DNA of 38,080 nucleotides from a virus. Its lineage: Duplodnaviria; Caudoviricetes. The position numbers and the translations under genes were made by a program. The DNA lies in the IMG/VR virus record IMGVR_UViG_3300035180_000540, positions 1 through 38,080 of that record; one strand, written 5' to 3'. A model generated the notes under the pieces. That model was given only the letters and a program-made list of their open reading frames with translations. It was not told the origin of the DNA and made no database searches. Shown here one piece after another: positions 605-28,920 of this stretch. Every line of letters begins with the position of its first letter. Within the stretch, counting starts at the first letter, position 1.

Positions 605-1429
605 ATGAAAAACCTTGAACTACTATTATCATCAGGTAAAGATATTATCCAAAATATTAGCACTATGTCAGATGATGACTTAGGTGTTTTAGCTGAATAT
701 ATAAATGATACTTTCGATAAAGCAGATATACAAACAAACCACTATTTTCATGCAGGTATCTATATTCGTGAAATGGTAGTTCCAGCTAATTGTTTTGTAA
801 TAGGACAAGCTCATACTAGCGGAGACTTCACTAATATTCTTACACAAGGATCAGCACTTCTACGCAATGAAGAGGGGGAGATTATGGAAGTTACTGCCCC
901 ATATATATCCAATGCTAAAAACGGAAATAGAAAGACCGCATATTTTACAAGTGATTCAAAGTGGATCAATATTCATAATACAGATAAAACTACTGTTAAA
1001 GAAGTAGAAAAGGATATTCTAGTACCTGAAAGTCCACTATTTAAAACACGATATGAGTATATAAAAGCTATAAAAGATATTGGCTTTACCCATGAACAAG
1101 TACAATCAATTACTCAACAGCACCAAGACTTAATATGTATTGATATGTCTTTATTTGGAGTAGAAGTACAATCTTCTCCGATAGATGGGATGGGGCTATT
1201 TACTACAAAAGATTTTAAGCAAGGCGATGTTATATGTCCTACTCGTATTTGTGACTTTAGAACAGAGGCGGGAAGATATACAAATCATAGTGACTTTCCA
1301 AACGTAGAGAGTAAGCTATTAGACGGTCAGAGTGTTCACTATATAGCACTTAAAGATTTACTTGTTGGTGATGAAATTTTAGTCGATTATAGAGAAGCTT
1401 ACAAATTATTACGAGAAATGGAGAAATAA
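605..1429 (+). CDS. Cupin-like domain fused to a SET-domain (protein lysine methyltransferase) domain
   Basis: N-terminal HYFHAGIYIREM..GQAH..WINIH cupin-like pattern; C-terminal SET motifs SPIDGMGLF, RYTNHSDFPN and GDEILVDY. Confidence 0.85.
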   Translation: MKNLELLLSSGKDIIQNISTMSDDDLGVLAEYINDTFDKADIQTNHYFHAGIYIREMVVPANCFVIGQAHTSGDFTNILTQGSALLRNEEGEIMEVTAPYISNAKNGNRKTAYFTSDSKWINIHNTDKTTVKEVEKDILVPESPLFKTRYEYIKAIKDIGFTHEQVQSITQQHQDLICIDMSLFGVEVQSSPIDGMGLFTTKDFKQGDVICPTRICDFRTEAGRYTNHSDFPNVESKLLDGQSVHYIALKDLLVGDEILVDYREAYKLLREMEK

Positions 1430-1430
1430 G

Positions 1431-2111
1431 ATGGCAGGATGGGTAGCAGGGGCAGTAGCAATAAGCGCAGGATTAGGCGCATATTCAGCAAGTAGCGCAG
1501 CAGATAAACAAGCAAAAGCTGCTAAAGATGCAGCAGATAAACAAGCACAGAGCGCACAAGCTTCAATAGATTCTCAAAACGCGGCACTAGATAAACAAAT
1601 TGCACTAAACCAACCTTGGCAAGATGCAGGGCTTAAGGCATTAGGAAAATATGCAGATAACCCAGCGTTTAAATTTGGAGCAGAAGATTTTACAGCGTCA
1701 CCATCATATCAGTTCAGACAACAAGAAGGTGTTAATTCCCTTGATATGTCGGCATCATCAAGAGGTAAACTACTATCTGGTGCGCAAGATAAGGCTATAA
1801 CAAACTATGGGCAAAATTTAGCAAGTGAAGAGTATGGAAACGCATATAATCAAGCACTTCAAAACTATAATACAAATCAAAACACTCAACTAAATATAGC
1901 TAATATTGGACGTGGTGCAGCAGGGCAAACGCAATCTGCTATACAAAGTAACTCACAAGGTGTATCAAACGCATTGCTACAAAATGGAAATAATCAAGCA
2001 CAGGCACAATACGCAATGGGTAACGCATATGCTACTGGGGCGCAGGGTATGACTACAGCATTAAACCAAGGTGTTGGAAATGCTTTATATATGTACAATA
2101 AGGGGAAATAG
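1431..2111 (+). CDS. DNA ejection/transfer protein (P22 gp7-like)
   Basis: Gly/Ala hydrophobic N-terminus, Q/N/A-rich, PSYQFRQQEG motif, first of three ejection-position genes. Confidence 0.7.
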   Translation: MAGWVAGAVAISAGLGAYSASSAADKQAKAAKDAADKQAQSAQASIDSQNAALDKQIALNQPWQDAGLKALGKYADNPAFKFGAEDFTASPSYQFRQQEGVNSLDMSASSRGKLLSGAQDKAITNYGQNLASEEYGNAYNQALQNYNTNQNTQLNIANIGRGAAGQTQSAIQSNSQGVSNALLQNGNNQAQAQYAMGNAYATGAQGMTTALNQGVGNALYMYNKGK

Positions 2112-13956: not shown

Positions 13957-16008
13957 ATGGGCTTAGATAGAACAAAAATAATTCAAGATGTATATAGTTC
14001 TCCTATTACTAGATCAGTATTGGGTAACTATAATACAGTTATTAATGGTAGTGACTTTGCAGTACAACGTACAACAAACAACGGTCAGTTATTAGTAGAG
14101 TTAAGTGCTGATCCACTTGCAGAAGATACGCTATCATATTTGGAGTATCTAGGAACAGTAACTCCACCATTCAATCTTGATGTACCACTAAGTATCTCAC
14201 AGCGTTCAAGAGGACAGTTCTTTGAATTAAGTATGATTCAGAAGCTATCCAATGCAACAGATATGTTTACTGTATCACCTGCTATTGCTATGACAAGTAT
14301 TTCACAGTCTAGTACTACAATTACTATTATATTAGCTACTCCTACAAATATACAAGTAGGTGAGTGGTTTAATACATATGGTGTAGATGATAGTAGATTG
14401 AATATCTGTAATGCAGTAGTTTCAAGTGTATCAGCTGATAAGCTAACTATTACTTGTGGATATACTGGAGATGTAGTTAATACGTCTCTTACTATTTCAG
14501 CTATTACAAGTCTAGGATATTTTAAACCACAAGATAAGCCATCATCTTCTCTCAATGGAGCATCGTATGTATTTAGTGGAACAAGTGCTACATCAGCATC
14601 ATTACTACTTCAGGCATCAGGTAGTAATGTAAGAACTAGCGGAACTAATGCAACTAGCCATTTACTTACAAATGCCTCAACTACACCAGTTTTTGTTAAT
14701 GCCGGTAATAGTCAATTTGAGATTAAACCTACATCATCTTTTGAACTTGAAATAGATAAGACATCAGTAGGATTCCTTGACTATGGTGTAGATAGTGCAG
14801 CTGCTCAATCAGCTGTAAGATTACTACAAGAAACTGGAATACCTGAATACTATGCAGGCTATACACCATTACTACGTGCTCTTACTTCTAAGTCTACAAC
14901 AAGACCAGTAGCTAAGATTGTATCAGCTGTAAAAAGTGGTACAACTACAGCAACGATTACTACTGATGTGGTACATGGATTAATAGCAAATAAAAGTGTA
15001 GTAGATATTATTGGATGTAGAGATCAAACTAACTTTATCACAACTACTGGGATTACTATTGCTACAGTACCAACATCTAATACATTCACAATAGTTTTTG
15101 GAACAGCAGTAACAGCAAATACTTATGGGGGGTCTGTAAGTCTACGAAATGGTAGCAACTCTACAGTAGGTAATGCTGCCCAAGCTATCCAGTCACTATC
15201 AATTGATGCCAATGGAATAATGTCAGTAGTTGGTTCTTCTACATGGAGCGGCATTACAGTAGGAGAATATGTAAACCTACATGGTGTGCGTGCTGATCTA
15301 ACTGGAGTAGACTTAGGTTTCGATGGTGCCTATGTGCTTATTGACTTAAATGGCACTACTATGAAGCTAAAAGCTGTACTTAATCCTGATGGAACTAATA
15401 CAAAAAATGGACTAGGAATAAATGTAACTCCGGCTATGCCAGTTACTTCTAGTGTAAACTGTGGTGGTTCTGTAATTATGAGAACTACTGGACGTATTCA
15501 TGATTTAAGATTAGAAGAACGTAACTATAAAGCTGTTAAGATTTGGGGACAAGGTGAGAGCAGAACAGATATAGCTTTACCAGTTACCGTGCAGAATACA
15601 TCTACAGTTGCTATAAGTGGTACACCAACAGTAGTTTCTACTTTGAATCCAGCAACTTCTGGTGCAACTTCTGGTGCAACTATGGCATCATATATTCTAG
15701 CAGCTACAACTAACTCACAATTGGTTATTACTGGTGCTAAGAACTTATTTACTATTGATGTATCTAATGACTCAGCTACAAAGTTTTGGCTAAAAATATA
15801 TAATAAAGCTACTGCTCCAACTGTTGGTACTGATGTTCCAGTATTACGTTACTTAGTTCCTGCTAATACAATGCTAGAACTTCAAATCCCACAATACTAT
15901 GGAGCTTACTTCTCATTAGGTATTGGGTTTGCTACTACTGGGCTAGTTGCTGACTCAGATACAACTGCTATCACTGCTGGTTCAGTAGTTACTATAAACT
16001 ATAAATAA
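13957..16008 (+). CDS. Large S/T/V-rich beta-sheet protein, probably a virion appendage or decoration protein
   Basis: Three similar small beta modules (TNIQVGEWFNTYGV, HGLIANKSVVDIIG, SGITVGEYVNLHGV); C-terminal LKIYNKATAPTVGTDVP domain; no signal peptide or TM segment visible. Confidence 0.5.
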   Translation: MGLDRTKIIQDVYSSPITRSVLGNYNTVINGSDFAVQRTTNNGQLLVELSADPLAEDTLSYLEYLGTVTPPFNLDVPLSISQRSRGQFFELSMIQKLSNATDMFTVSPAIAMTSISQSSTTITIILATPTNIQVGEWFNTYGVDDSRLNICNAVVSSVSADKLTITCGYTGDVVNTSLTISAITSLGYFKPQDKPSSSLNGASYVFSGTSATSASLLLQASGSNVRTSGTNATSHLLTNASTTPVFVNAGNSQFEIKPTSSFELEIDKTSVGFLDYGVDSAAAQSAVRLLQETGIPEYYAGYTPLLRALTSKSTTRPVAKIVSAVKSGTTTATITTDVVHGLIANKSVVDIIGCRDQTNFITTTGITIATVPTSNTFTIVFGTAVTANTYGGSVSLRNGSNSTVGNAAQAIQSLSIDANGIMSVVGSSTWSGITVGEYVNLHGVRADLTGVDLGFDGAYVLIDLNGTTMKLKAVLNPDGTNTKNGLGINVTPAMPVTSSVNCGGSVIMRTTGRIHDLRLEERNYKAVKIWGQGESRTDIALPVTVQNTSTVAISGTPTVVSTLNPATSGATSGATMASYILAATTNSQLVITGAKNLFTIDVSNDSATKFWLKIYNKATAPTVGTDVPVLRYLVPANTMLELQIPQYYGAYFSLGIGFATTGLVADSDTTAITAGSVVTINYK

Positions 16009-19835: not shown

Positions 19836-20042
19836 TCATCTCATCTCCAATGCTTCTGCAAATATTTCTTTAATACTATTTTCGTTAAATTCAAATCCAT
19901 AAATAGAATACAAATCTGCAATTTCATTAATTGCGTTTGCTATTTCTTGCTTCCAAGTACTTACAAATAACAACAGCTCTTCATGTTCCTTTTCATTTTT
20001 TTCTCTATTTAAGAGATCATGATCGTAGTGTTCTAGTTTCAT
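19836..20042 (-). CDS. Hypothetical acidic protein, first gene after an early promoter
   Basis: AAGGA SD; directly downstream of the conserved promoter box. Confidence 0.7.
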   Translation of the reverse strand: MKLEHYDHDLLNREKNEKEHEELLLFVSTWKQEIANAINEIADLYSIYGFEFNENSIKEIFAEALEMR

Positions 20043-20053
20043 ATTGTTCCTTC

Positions 20054-20106
20054 TTTTAGAATAAGTAACTATACAACAGGTTACCTTTTAGTAAACTTAA
20101 AAGGTA
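20054..20106 (-). promoter_or_regulatory. Early promoter/operator box 1
   Basis: ttttagaataagtaactatacaacaggttacctttt; -10 TATAGT on the minus strand; inverted repeat tacctttta-N7-taaaaggta. Confidence 0.75.
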
Positions 20107-23161: not shown

Positions 23162-23587
23162 TTAGTTTGTTTGTTCTTCGTTAAGTGATTCAATTTCTGG
23201 ATCACCACCTGCTATACCTAGCATACTTAATAATGAATAACGTCTTAAGTATGATGCTACACTACCACACTGCATAATTTCCGTGCTACCTTTTACAGGA
23301 TCACCTAGTGGAAACATCAATGTATGTTCTACCCATTCATCGCCATGATGTAGACGAGAAATAACTAATACAAATGGCATATCATCAACTAATGTCATTC
23401 TATGCTCTTGCACTAGCGCAATTCCGTTACCACCTAAAATTGGTAACAACTTTGTTACGATTCCATTCAAAGTTAAATATGAGTATCGTTTTTCATATCC
23501 AAACGCATCATCTTTTAACTCTGGAAATTCAGCTTGCGATTTTGCAAGTGCTGTCATTAACTGACCAACACTTTTACTTGTTTTCAC
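23162..23587 (-). CDS. erf: ERF family ssDNA-annealing protein
   Basis: ALAKSQAEF..YSYLTL..L..NGI..Q..GSVASYLRRYSLLSMLGI signature. Confidence 0.9.
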   Translation of the reverse strand: MKTSKSVGQLMTALAKSQAEFPELKDDAFGYEKRYSYLTLNGIVTKLLPILGGNGIALVQEHRMTLVDDMPFVLVISRLHHGDEWVEHTLMFPLGDPVKGSTEIMQCGSVASYLRRYSLLSMLGIAGGDPEIESLNEEQTN

Positions 23588-23602
23588 CTTTTACCACCTT
23601 CT

Positions 23603-23645
23603 TTTTGGAATATGTAACTATACAATAGGTTACCTTAAAGGTAAC
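23603..23645 (-). promoter_or_regulatory. Early promoter/operator box 2
   Basis: ttttggaatatgtaactatacaataggttaccttaaaggtaac; perfect palindrome GTTACCTT-A-AAGGTAAC at 23629-23645. Confidence 0.8.
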
Positions 23646-23659
23646 TTTATATATTAACA

Positions 23660-26297: not shown

Positions 26298-26304
26298 ATT
26301 AAGC

Positions 26305-26559
26305 CTATATATTAGTAATAGTGTTAATAATATAGTCTATATGCTTAGAATAATTATTATATCCATTCTGAGTGTCATATTTTTCCTCTCTTATTTTATA
26401 ATCATCACTTTTATATATGATTATGTTATCTTGATCTTTAACTAATACTTGTAGATAGAATGATGAATTAATTTCTTTTTCTATAGTACCAACTTTTAGC
26501 GTTTTAAACGCATCTTTATTATGGAAAGTAGTTCCATCAAACGTAAAATATTGTGACAT
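26305..26559 (-). CDS. Hypothetical protein, first main gene of the replication operon
   Basis: AGGA SD; downstream of the structured leader. Confidence 0.65.
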   Translation of the reverse strand: MSQYFTFDGTTFHNKDAFKTLKVGTIEKEINSSFYLQVLVKDQDNIIIYKSDDYKIREEKYDTQNGYNNYSKHIDYIINTITNI

Positions 26560-26588
26560 TATAAGTCCTATTTTTGATTGCTAGTCAG

Positions 26589-26711
26589 TTAATGTAAGTT
26601 GAGGATTTTGTAAATGAAGATTAGCCGTCTCATTTATCAACAACTCCAAGAATAGGGAGAGACGGCTAGGTGTTGCCCTATTCTTGCAATTGTTCTATAC
26701 GTATTATAACA
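26589..26711 (-). promoter_or_regulatory. Extended -10 promoter plus structured leader (pseudoknot/kissing) with a 14-aa uORF
   Basis: TGtTATAAT at 26711-26703; stem 26647-57/26676-86; loop 26659-68 complementary to 26622-31; uORF MRRLIFIYKILNLH from 26633. Confidence 0.7.
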
Positions 26712-26738
26712 AAATAATTATAAATAAGGCATAAAGCC

Positions 26739-27251
26739 CTATTTAATCATAAGCGTTGTATTAGTAACTAACTCTGCACCGATTACACACTCACCAGACT
26801 TAATGGCTGTCTTAATTGCTGTCTTATCCGCTTCGTATGTAGTCTTAACTCTGGAGTATTTACCTTGCATATTAAAGCCTTCTACAATATTTACCAATTC
26901 ACTTTTACGTGTTGAGAATGAAAACTTTTGTGTTTTTAGTTTTGCATCAGGTAGCTCAATCAATGCAGATAACATTAAACTTTTTAGGCTTGTGTGATTA
27001 TTTTCTAATCGTTTAGCACGTTCATTTAATCGTTTTGTTTCACGCTTTAAAGCATCTGATTGTAATTCAAGTTCATTAAGTATGTAGGCACAACCCTCTA
27101 GCTTGTCAGATAGTGTTACGCATAGGCTATTAAATAGCTCATTGATTGTTTGGCTATCATCTACAATCTCACCAGTCTCACTATCGTACTGTTCATTTTC
27201 TGCTAAGTCACGAAGAGTTCTAAATTCTTCTGCGATATTATATATTTTCAT
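26739..27251 (-). CDS. Siphovirus Gp157 family protein (start revised from 27281)
   Basis: MKIYNIAEEF..D.ETGE..K.E..RL..R.K..DKTAIKTAIKSG..V.GAEL; AAGGTG SD before ATG 27251. Confidence 0.9.
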   Translation of the reverse strand: MKIYNIAEEFRTLRDLAENEQYDSETGEIVDDSQTINELFNSLCVTLSDKLEGCAYILNELELQSDALKRETKRLNERAKRLENNHTSLKSLMLSALIELPDAKLKTQKFSFSTRKSELVNIVEGFNMQGKYSRVKTTYEADKTAIKTAIKSGECVIGAELVTNTTLMIK

Positions 27252-27262
27252 GTTACACCTTT

Positions 27263-27303
27263 TTTTGGAATAAGCAATCATATAATAGGTTACCTTTAAG
27301 GTA
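27263..27303 (-). promoter_or_regulatory. Early promoter/operator box 3
   Basis: ttttggaataagcaatcatataataggttacctttaaggta; -10 TATGAT; palindrome TACCTT-T-AAGGTA. Confidence 0.75.
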
Positions 27304-27313
27304 TATTAATATA

Positions 27314-27467
27314 TTGTAATTCGAGATCAATTAAGATATAATAAAAAATCAGTTTAGCGTTATTCGTTACTGTTGCAGTGGTTAGCTTTTCGCCTTCTCT
27401 GACTACTGCATAAATCTCCAATCAAAATACAAAACATTTTAACTGCGTTCAACTTTTGGAGATTTTT
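27314..27467 (+). ncRNA. Candidate small RNA with its own promoter
   Basis: TTGTAA-17-TATAAT (27314-27342); 12-bp stem 27374-85/27399-410 with two G-U pairs; 10-bp inverted repeat 27412-21/27456-65; no convincing ORF. Confidence 0.45.
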
Positions 27468-27560
27468 GATATAATACACTTTGAAAGTTTTGTTAGGCGG
27501 TATTCACTACCTCCATAGCATTACCGCCTAGTAAAATTTATAAGTCTATGGAGGACTTCA
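27467..27560 (+). promoter_or_regulatory. Extended -10 promoter plus SD-pairing pseudoknot leader of the methyltransferase
   Basis: TGaTATAAT 27467-75; stem 27494-502/27522-30, extendable with G-U pairs; loop cctccatag 27510-18 complementary to ctatggagg 27546-54. Confidence 0.75.
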
Positions 27561-28889
27561 ATGCGTATAGCAACTCTCTTCTCAGGCATCGGCGCACCAG
27601 AACAAGCAATGCACCGAATTAATCCAAACTTTAAAACTATATTTGCGTGTGAATGGGATAAATTTGCACGAAAGAGTTATTCAGCGATCTATAATATAGA
27701 CGAGGCACATTTTCATAAAGATGTTCACGATATGGATGGCACACAGTATCAAGGTAAGGTAGATATCTTAGTAGGTGGATCACCATGCCAAGCTTTTAGT
27801 ATTGCAGGCCTTAGAAGTGGAACTAATGATGAAAGAGGACAATTAATCTATCAGTATATCCGTATAGTTGATGAAGTAAAAGCACCGATTATTGTCTATG
27901 AAAACGTTAAAGGTATGTTATCGATAGATGGTGGAAGGACTATAAAAGAATTTGTACAGGCGTTGCGTGATATTGGATATCATTGCCACTATGAAGTAGT
28001 AAATACTAAAGACTATGGAGTTCCACAAAATCGTGAACGTATCTTTTTAGTCGGATTTTTAGATCACGAGGCATATCTTCGTTTTAGTTTTGCACCGAAG
28101 CAAAAATTAGAGAAGCGATTAAAAGACGTTTTGGAAGATAGTGTGGATGAGAAGTATTATTTAAAAGATAGTACGATAGCTCAATTTACTGAAAAAACAG
28201 AACGTGCAAAAAGAGAAGGAAACGGATTTGCTTTTAAGCCATCAGTTGGAGATAATATAGCCTACTCAATCACTACAAAAGCAGGAGGAAGAGTAGACGA
28301 TAATTTTATTGATGTTATCGGGTTACTAGACTGCAAAGGCACAGATCAAATACGTAGAGTTTATGGTATTGATGGAGTTGCAGCGACGCTAACTACTATG
28401 CAGGGTGGTAATCAAGAGCCGAAGATATTGCAATTAGGTCGTGGTTTTAATAATGGTGGAGAACATAACATTTGTCCTACATTAACGAGATGTAGTTTTG
28501 AAAATAATAATTTTGTAAAAACTTGCTTACAAGAAATAACTCCAAAAATAGGAGCTATGAGAGGGCGTAATCATGAAAATCCTAAAAGTCGGTTAGTAGG
28601 TTTAGAAACTGTACAAATGATAGAAATGAACGAAAATGGAACGTCAAATTGTTTAACAACGGTACAAAAAGATAATTTAGTTGTTGAGCCTCAGCGTATC
28701 AGAAAACTTACTCCTCTTGAATGTTGGAGGTTACAAGATTTCCCTGACGAAGCACATAATAAAGCAAAAGCAGTGGGGGTATCTGATAGTCAGCTTTATA
28801 AACAAGCTGGAAATTCAATGTCAGTAAACGTGTTAGAAATGATATTTAGACAAATTATAAGCGGAGAAAATAGTGACTCGCTTTTTTAA
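27561..28889 (+). CDS. DNA (cytosine-5)-methyltransferase, orphan, with a long variable region
   Basis: LFSGIG, GGSPCQ, YENVKG, PQNRERIF, RKLTPLECWRLQDF and YKQAGNS motifs. Confidence 0.96.
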   Translation: MRIATLFSGIGAPEQAMHRINPNFKTIFACEWDKFARKSYSAIYNIDEAHFHKDVHDMDGTQYQGKVDILVGGSPCQAFSIAGLRSGTNDERGQLIYQYIRIVDEVKAPIIVYENVKGMLSIDGGRTIKEFVQALRDIGYHCHYEVVNTKDYGVPQNRERIFLVGFLDHEAYLRFSFAPKQKLEKRLKDVLEDSVDEKYYLKDSTIAQFTEKTERAKREGNGFAFKPSVGDNIAYSITTKAGGRVDDNFIDVIGLLDCKGTDQIRRVYGIDGVAATLTTMQGGNQEPKILQLGRGFNNGGEHNICPTLTRCSFENNNFVKTCLQEITPKIGAMRGRNHENPKSRLVGLETVQMIEMNENGTSNCLTTVQKDNLVVEPQRIRKLTPLECWRLQDFPDEAHNKAKAVGVSDSQLYKQAGNSMSVNVLEMIFRQIISGENSDSLF

Positions 28890-28920
28890 TAACAAAAAAA
28901 TATAAACAAAGGAAATAACA

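Follow-up and report, generated by a model that had tools for sequence, protein, structure and literature searches.

A predicted pseudoknot leader RNA likely restrains translation of a phage cytosine methyltransferase and precedes homing endonuclease genes in related phages

The leader of a C5 cytosine DNA methyltransferase gene in a phage likely acts in cis as a pseudoknot, in which the loop of a long hairpin pairs with the Shine-Dalgarno (SD) sequence and locks out the ribosome after a short translatable phase, keeping the methyltransferase scarce. The DNA analyzed (the window) is a complete virus record of 38,080 bases with 34% G+C. Covariation among homologues shows that the hairpin stem (P1) and the loop:SD helix (P2) exist as pairings. 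Because the fold covaries and lies mostly upstream of selfish DNA-cutting enzymes, these swappable genes are likely kept poorly translated, and SAM sensing is likely not involved. An uncatalogued, covarying leader RNA is thereby added to the ways in which mobile phage genes restrain themselves.

In the window copy (Table 1), the 80 bases ahead of the gene are predicted to form the fold; an extended -10 box is followed by P1, a stem of 18 bp with 3 G-U pairs. Transcription is predicted to start near 27482, a position placed by spacing from the -10 box. Nine loop residues, CCUCCAUAG (27510-27518), exactly complement CUAUGGAGG (27546-27554), and the SD within the latter ends 6 nt before the ATG at 27561. 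These features bear out the preliminary description, which had reported a promoter followed by a stem of up to about 18 bp with G-U pairs, and a loop perfectly complementary to an SD-bearing strand in a small hairpin; the sequence and the predicted folds agree with it. The small hairpin (P3) and P2 are mutually exclusive. There is no second -10 box within the window's leader, the sole TATAAT within 200 nt of the methyltransferase start being the one upstream of the fold, and TATAAT occupies the equivalent place in all nine SD-pairing (type-A) leaders examined. The 5′ end of the transcript could form a further helix, P0, which is 5 to 7 bp long in four HNH homologues. We treat P0 as tentative because it is mostly invariant among homologues of this leader (subfamily A1) and reaches only 4 bp in the window.

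Table 1. Positions of the leader elements, the methyltransferase gene, the second leader and the exchanged segment in the window
Feature	Position	Strand	Basis or remark
Extended -10 box, TGn-TATAAT	27467..27475	+	Sequence
5′ transcript end; tentative helix P0, 4 bp	27482..27485	+	Complementary to 27503-27506
P1, 5′ strand	27485..27502	+	Folding; lower half AU/GU-rich, upper half GC-rich
P1 loop, 19 nt	27503..27521	+	Sequence, crossing-helix scan, homologues
P2, anti-SD strand	27510..27518	+	Inside P1 loop
P1, 3′ strand	27522..27539	+	Folding; inverted repeat I5
P3, mini-hairpin around SD, 5-6 bp	27542..27558	+	Folding; AAGUC/GACUU, 27542-27546/27554-27558
P2, 3′ strand, including SD	27546..27554	+	Sequence, crossing-helix scan; GGAGG at 27550-27554
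C5 cytosine DNA methyltransferase, 442 aa	27561..28889	+	PF00145, E 3e-76; phrog_116
Swapped cassette: promoter, leader, methyltransferase	27453..28901	+	blastn vs L241
Type-B leader	26560..26708	-	-10 box 26708-26703; heads replication operon, ATG 26559
Type-B P1	26694-26676/26657-26639	-	
Type-B P2	26668-26659/26631-26622	-	Distal strand 26631-26622, 62 nt upstream of ATG 26559

The predicted fold has a z score of -3.2, with 2 of 200 shuffles equally good; folding from the presumed +1 gives -3.6, a result equaled by none of 200 shuffles. Watson-Crick runs of at least 9 arose in 32 of 20,000 shuffled loops. A window-wide scan for crossing helices, each of at least 8 pairs, returned two sites only, this leader and 26622-26686. 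Since shuffled windows yield 0 to 6 such layouts, the raw count of two does not exceed chance. When each helix had to contain at least 4 G/C, a filter that suits the two observed sites and was counted by the same script as the unfiltered layouts, 40 shuffle runs gave 1 match against the 2 observed. Homologue covariation is stronger evidence than the window-wide layout count. The leader stem is absent from the terminator-like sites of the window.

Relatives were fetched via the methyltransferase, Gp157, the helicase and an HNH protein, complete phage records were added, and the DNA was scanned for a -10 box followed by a hairpin whose loop pairs downstream. Related phage DNA (625 kb) carried the layout at 14 loci, compared with 0 to 2 in 8 shuffles, while 316 kb of cellular-genome stretches held one weak match. 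The structure-based scan upstream of other phage genes that had been proposed earlier thus finds the layout recurring, and these counts, with the loop:SD covariation, support the accompanying view of a recurring phage translational control element. The five full A1 homologues (L241, L257, L344, L373 and L476) all lie upstream of AP2-HNH endonuclease genes; a sixth, L011/L273, is cut by a contig end and has a methyltransferase downstream. The phages that carry A1 homologues are probably Campylobacterota phages.

Six full A1 sequences, which are the whole A1 sample and whose registers were anchored on the helices, were compared. The 8-pair core of P2 is paired in 48/48 cells with two-sided changes at 6/8 positions, and the upper 9 pairs of P1 are intact in 54/54 cells with two-sided changes at 7/9 positions. 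All six retain P3, which shows a single two-sided change and a single G-U change. The best partner of the loop was its own SD strand in 5/6 A1 rows; for the L344 loop, the SD of L476, which belongs to the same phage, is as good a partner as its own SD (-13.9 versus -13.7). In a 10-row model alignment, which was fitted to the structure and includes one chance row (L258), 93.6% was paired, compared with 67.9% after shuffling and 40 to 60% in slid controls, and two-sided cells numbered 22, compared with 6.7 after shuffling. For the most part the members come from a scan in which pairing is a requirement. A sequence pattern led to L344, and their proteins led to L283 and L011; both L344 and L283 pair as predicted. 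Along the promoter strand of 12 leaders, G-U combinations outnumber A-C by 23 to 2, an excess that points to an RNA read from the promoter. P1 spans 18 to 22 bp in all 12 leaders measured, the hairpin begins 1 to 6 nt from the predicted +1, and in the 9 type-A leaders measured P2 stops 2 to 8 nt short of the start codon.

Scanning viral contigs with a pattern returned 29 matches: 3 homologues (1 of them new) and 26 sequences without the fold. Among 103 further loci, 80 of which were the best viral HNH matches, a clear leader was seen in L373 only; three weak scan matches in this set were put aside as chance. A match of the RNA model R1 to L258 fell inside a coding gene and was rejected, and a search with R1 of 151 host-family genomes, which shows little because it had no positive control, found nothing. 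When annotated-phage DNA was searched with 26500-27700, it returned only short methyltransferase coding-sequence matches and one chance match. No paper on this leader motif was found in open-access full text, and no HNH motif appears in the main text of a paper describing 224 motifs (PMC5737381).

Thirteen type-A leaders were collected, 7 before HNH genes, 4 before C5 methyltransferase genes and 2 before unknown genes. Subfamily A2 consists of L004 and L034, which precede methyltransferases, and L283, which precedes an HNH gene; subfamily A3 consists of L257, before an HNH gene; and two longer SD-pairing forms (L247 and L249) precede genes of unknown family. The other subfamilies have the same design and unrelated sequence. 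A related leader also stands ahead of gene NRS1_27 in the cultured phage NrS-1. Leaders are absent from 5 of 9 related HNH genes in phage records, and the full leader is present at 4 of 39 close methyltransferase homologues. Among the 35 homologues without it, 29 start within 60 nt of the upstream gene, and the nearest relatives of the window enzyme (91-96%) lie inside operons and have no leader.

The window contains a second leader, of type B, at 26.6 kb on the opposite strand. It had been described as unrelated in sequence, and a blastn-short comparison agrees. The further statement that the two leaders share one architecture holds for the topology, which is common to both, but not for SD pairing, since the distal strand of the type-B leader is not the SD. 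Six leaders pair upstream of the SD: this one, L241 (HNH), L038 (methyltransferase), L242 (primase-helicase), L243 (antirepressor) and L249. At the 26.6-kb position, L241 has another sequence with the same fold, upstream of an HNH gene. Formation of P2 in that leader frees a 6-base anti-SD able to pair with the SD; such a freed anti-SD is clear in this one of four type-B leaders and weak or absent in the other three.

The window's promoter, leader and gene are exchanged as a unit. Blastn homology with the closest phage, L241, stops at 27452 and restarts at 28902, so that promoter, leader and methyltransferase replace the ParB-like and PAPS-reductase-like genes occupying this slot in L241. On the left side, window positions 26300-26687 stand where L241 has another leader and an HNH gene, and the homology breaks at 27452 and 26688 each adjoin one leader. 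No nuclease gene adjoins the window methyltransferase. On a tree of 30 of the 39 methyltransferase homologues (two were dropped for stop codons in the slice and the others were not entered), leader presence needs 4 changes and leader-bearing enzymes are scattered. L034 (methyltransferase) and L476 (HNH), which have different leaders, adjoin what appears by eye to be the same structural gene, and in G006 an HNH gene sits within the 5′ end of this methyltransferase family, with a remnant left upstream. On the strength of these slot swaps, scattered leaders, shared neighbor and insertion, the promoter-leader unit is best read as an expression cassette that belongs chiefly to AP2-HNH homing endonucleases and that stand-alone methyltransferases have likely acquired more than once. 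The unit of exchange is thereby seen to be the promoter and leader together, reused by homing endonucleases and orphan methyltransferases.

We infer that the P1 and P2 pairings, established by covariation, repress translation and do so with a delay. P1 would be completed first, before the SD is transcribed. Next, the SD would appear within P3, a weak local hairpin that still lets ribosomes load; P3 would open, the SD would dock onto the P1 loop as a pseudoknot, and docking would end translation of that mRNA. Nested folding alone favors P1 plus P3 in 11/12 leaders, which leaves the SD in a weak hairpin only. In a crude reach test, P2 can form with 0 to 7 basal P1 pairs opened, and the locked form lies 2 to 13 kcal/mol below P1 plus P3 in 12/12 leaders, with pseudoknot penalty terms that are crude and not tool-derived. 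This test overturned the notion that full P1 and P2 are incompatible in cis. A post-transcriptional cis lock was adopted because the nested fold is P1 plus P3, yet the reach test allows and favors the knot. The knot would be strained, because P1 has 18 to 22 bp and the type-A linker from P1 to the SD strand is 1 to 7 nt, requiring near-full stretch across the stem. If only the top 9 P1 pairs survive, the lock is favored in 1/12 leaders and 10/12 are within 5 kcal/mol. Heating from 10 to 50°C narrowed the gap between nested states but left its sign unchanged in 11/12 leaders, so no RNA thermometer is indicated. A precedent for the purpose of such a lock is found in the structures that sequester the ribosome binding site (RBS) of T-even homing endonuclease genes (PMC2988022).

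Several other explanations were weighed against this cis lock. SAM had been put forward as an obvious ligand to test, and an H-type pseudoknot at the RBS with a SAM-using enzyme downstream does recall SAM-II and SAM-V (PMC6061858). A SAM- or SAH-sensing riboswitch is nevertheless very improbable, because the helices vary freely, with 6/8 core P2 pairs swapping, and leave no conserved pocket; SAM-V needs a triplex whose nucleotides are mostly >97% conserved (PMC6061858), whereas the leader has no conserved triplex and a much longer P1. A consistent partnership with SAM or methionine genes fails as well, with nucleases downstream of 7/13 type-A leaders. The Infernal/Rfam check that had been suggested gave no family match: SAM-II, SAM-V and SAM-SAH had 0 hits at the gathering score in the window and 0 in 11 homologous loci, and int-alpA and other Rfam leader motifs had no match in the window, in 26400-27700 or in those loci. 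At low stringency, the best E value over 26400-27700 (1.3 kb) was 1.3, and four weak matches (E 1.3-6.4) were generic hairpins. The element might instead act as DNA, its inverted repeat serving as an autoregulatory operator of the methyltransferase or as a recombination signal. Some C5 methyltransferases act at inverted repeats as repressors of their own promoters, and cassette boundaries coincide with leaders. The excess of G-U over A-C on the transcribed strand argues against an operator, as do an enzyme that starts at motif I without an N-terminal DNA-binding extension and an element that also precedes nucleases and is unconserved in sequence; we regard this explanation, too, as highly unlikely. 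Protection of the 5′ end from decay, or modification of the transcribing polymerase, could be the main role of the knot, with SD cover secondary. Such a role would suit a hairpin so close to +1, and type-B and type-C leaders, in which the loop pairs a strand other than the SD and replication or antirepressor genes lie downstream. It is made improbable by the 13 type-A members, in which the covarying strand is the SD itself, by the fact that P2 is not needed for 5′-end protection, which a plain hairpin would provide, and, for the polymerase, by the lack of a conserved binding surface common to the subfamilies.

The remaining explanations accept the RNA fold and differ from the cis lock in how it is used. 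A stem of two helical turns is of a length that suits RNase III, and P1 comes to about that in every leader measured. Host RNase III could bind or cut P1, remove or refold the anti-SD loop, and turn translation on; the inhibitory structure of lambda cIII mRNA is relieved by RNase III binding (PMC2777011), and the enzyme is active in this phylum, in Helicobacter pylori (PMC5416894). We hold such a switch to be rather unlikely, as stems differ among subfamilies and a plain stabilizer or scaffold would likewise require a long 5′-end stem. RNase III opening would be compatible with a cis lock. The leader could also be an inert relic that came with a since-lost homing endonuclease gene and has no selected role for the methyltransferase. 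HNH genes follow all five full A1 homologues, the G006 insertion interrupts the 5′ end of a related methyltransferase, few close methyltransferase homologues carry the full leader, and most HNH leaders have a longer P0. We think this unlikely even so: P1, P2 and P3 are intact here despite sequence divergence, and the A2 methyltransferase leaders L004 and L034 differ by compensatory changes in both helices. Because the SD stands at normal spacing from the methyltransferase ATG, the lock would act whatever its origin. Finally, docking in cis might be hampered by the stiff stem, and a transcript's loop might instead clamp the SD hairpin and 5′ tail of a second transcript. The leader would then count its own mRNA, translation dropping as cassette mRNA accumulates, and selfish nucleases and borrowed methyltransferases would be made only while the gene is rare in the cell; neither a protein nor a small RNA would be required. 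In support, P0 and full P1 exclude each other in cis, linkers are short relative to the stem, the estimated gain of a trans duplex after opening P3 is -6.7 to -16.9 kcal/mol, and two leaders in one phage have different P2 sequences. Against this, cis docking passes the reach test, a partner in cis is at far higher effective concentration, P0 is weakly supported, and the loop of L344 binds its own SD and that of L476, present in the same phage, about equally well; intermolecular pairing is therefore improbable, and a lock in cis is preferred. For an antisense RNA, another regulator named earlier, no partner was found in the window, where complements to either leader elsewhere did not exceed chance-length words, and no antisense promoter is conserved, opposite-strand -10-like boxes being at scattered positions in 7/9 leaders and absent in 2.

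The leader is of a known kind, an RBS-covering RNA at phage homing endonuclease genes; the long-stem pseudoknot form, the reuse on methyltransferases and the host group are new. At the T-even genes for I-TevI, I-TevII, I-TevIII, segB and Aeh1 mobE, leader RNA structure likewise covers a homing endonuclease RBS and restrains translation of a mobile gene (PMC2988022). Those T-even structures consist of a simple hairpin, and a late promoter whose transcript lacks the 5′ arm relieves it (PMC2988022), whereas here the anti-SD lies in the loop of a separate 18- to 22-bp stem, the promoter is upstream of the entire fold, and the leader also serves methyltransferases. SD pairing by RNA structure at homing endonuclease genes is found, by covariation, for the HNH homologues; the window copy precedes a methyltransferase. 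A lock that is timed by folding, that RNase III opens or that forms between molecules would explain how these genes are expressed without late-promoter relief of the T4 type.

Other known systems share parts of the design. The IncI-alpha repZ leader, too, has a hairpin loop paired to a distal stretch close to where a mobile-element gene begins, but its pseudoknot forms upstream of the RBS and activates translation, and the Inc antisense RNA blocks it (PMC8383071); P2 here includes the GGAGG and ends 6 nt before the ATG, so that the SD is not left free. In lambda cIII, too, a phage 5′ leader can take an inhibitory or a permissive fold (PMC2777011), and the two-turn double-stranded stem of that type is present here. 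The T4-type PeSL is a unit of promoter, stem-loop and SD at gene-swap points (PMC2839356), and the leaders here form such units at the breaks 27452 and 26688. Most PeSL stems lie inside the promoter or overlap it, and they serve as terminators; the word pseudoknot does not occur in the main text of that paper (PMC2839356). In all members of the present family, by contrast, the stem starts downstream of the -10 box; in this leader it is transcribed and its loop pairs with the SD. AapA1/IsoA1 of H. pylori, in the same phylum, also has an SD masked by folding during transcription, but depends on an antisense RNA, on pairing of the 5′ and 3′ ends and on 3′ processing, and its product is a 30-aa toxin (PMC5416894), none of which was found for this leader. 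Because the loop:SD helix is freely rewritable, the leader would make a compact, tunable and easily tested translation lock.

The window genome encodes a P22-like portal, terminase genes, ERF and Gp157, and no tRNA genes were found in its 38,080 bases. The host is likely a member of the Campylobacterota. In the 19 of 64 genome-collection parts scanned, the nearest named relative of the methyltransferase comes from a Sulfuricurvum assembly (78% identity). The methyltransferase motifs are intact, at residues 7, 73, 114, 156, 381 and 417. The leader and the methyltransferase gene sit within a divergent region of the genome.

An RNA separate from the methyltransferase leader is predicted just upstream of it. 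This small-RNA-like fold has its own promoter, ends 3′ in a hairpin and U run, carries a 13-nt pyrimidine loop, and is conserved in L241, the phage closest to the window. In both phages the loop is complementary to a 10-nt stretch where the ERF gene begins; in L241 it also complements two further start regions and 8 nt of the downstream SD. Equally strong 10-nt matches are present elsewhere in the window. The RNA may possibly act in trans as an anti-SD RNA.

Coordinates of the features described here
Feature	Record	Position	Strand	Remark
Small-RNA-like fold, separate from leader	window	27349-27467	+	fold z -4.9
Promoter of this fold, its own	window	27314-27342
Palindrome module, three copies	window	27245-27315, 23581-23655, 20034-20091	-
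TGAC...ATCAAA word	window	26560-26600	-	by eye
TGAC...ATCAAA word	L241	7800-7830		by eye
TGAC...ATCAAA word	L242	6700-6730	-	by eye
Related leader design	L492 (Nitratiruptor phage NrS-1, AB746912)	14333-14430
HNH leader of different design	L371	about 1400-1480		by eye
HNH leader of different design	L382	about 1930-2020		by eye
Leader variant, downstream pairing by loop's 5′ half, not 3′ half	L243	9864	+
Same variant	L249	14582	-
HNH gene within 5′ end of methyltransferase	L246 (G006)	about 2440-1850	-
274-aa ORF, structural region	window	605-1429	+

In each module copy a palindrome, GTTACCTT-N-AAGGTA, is followed about 30 nt downstream by a purine-rich RBS and then by leftward genes, and L241 has similar copies. 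The copies likely represent a shared cassette, either operator or promoter.

Further leader designs were found in other phages. Cultured phage NrS-1 has a -10 box and a 23-bp hairpin whose loop is complementary to the SD of a gene annotated as CII-like (7 pairs, 2 of them G-U) and also to codons near the start of that gene (9 pairs), a related design. The 5′ arm of the HNH leaders in L371 and L382 can, by eye, take either of two partners, a near strand or an SD-containing repeat. The L243 variant precedes an AntA antirepressor gene. Type-B leaders, whose loop pairs upstream of the SD, share by eye a short TGAC...ATCAAA word immediately upstream of the RBS.

The methyltransferase slot (window 27453-28901) holds ParB-like and PAPS-reductase-like genes in L030/L241, and related genes apparently lie upstream of the phages' own methyltransferases in records L001 and L002. 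These may be exchangeable DNA-modification modules. The HNH gene of L246 has its own promoter (TTGACA/TATAAT); a broken start remnant of the methyltransferase lies upstream of it, and the downstream methyltransferase copy contains an in-frame stop. Finally, the C-terminal part of the 274-aa ORF matches the SET domain (PF00856, E 2e-9), which is unusual in a phage.
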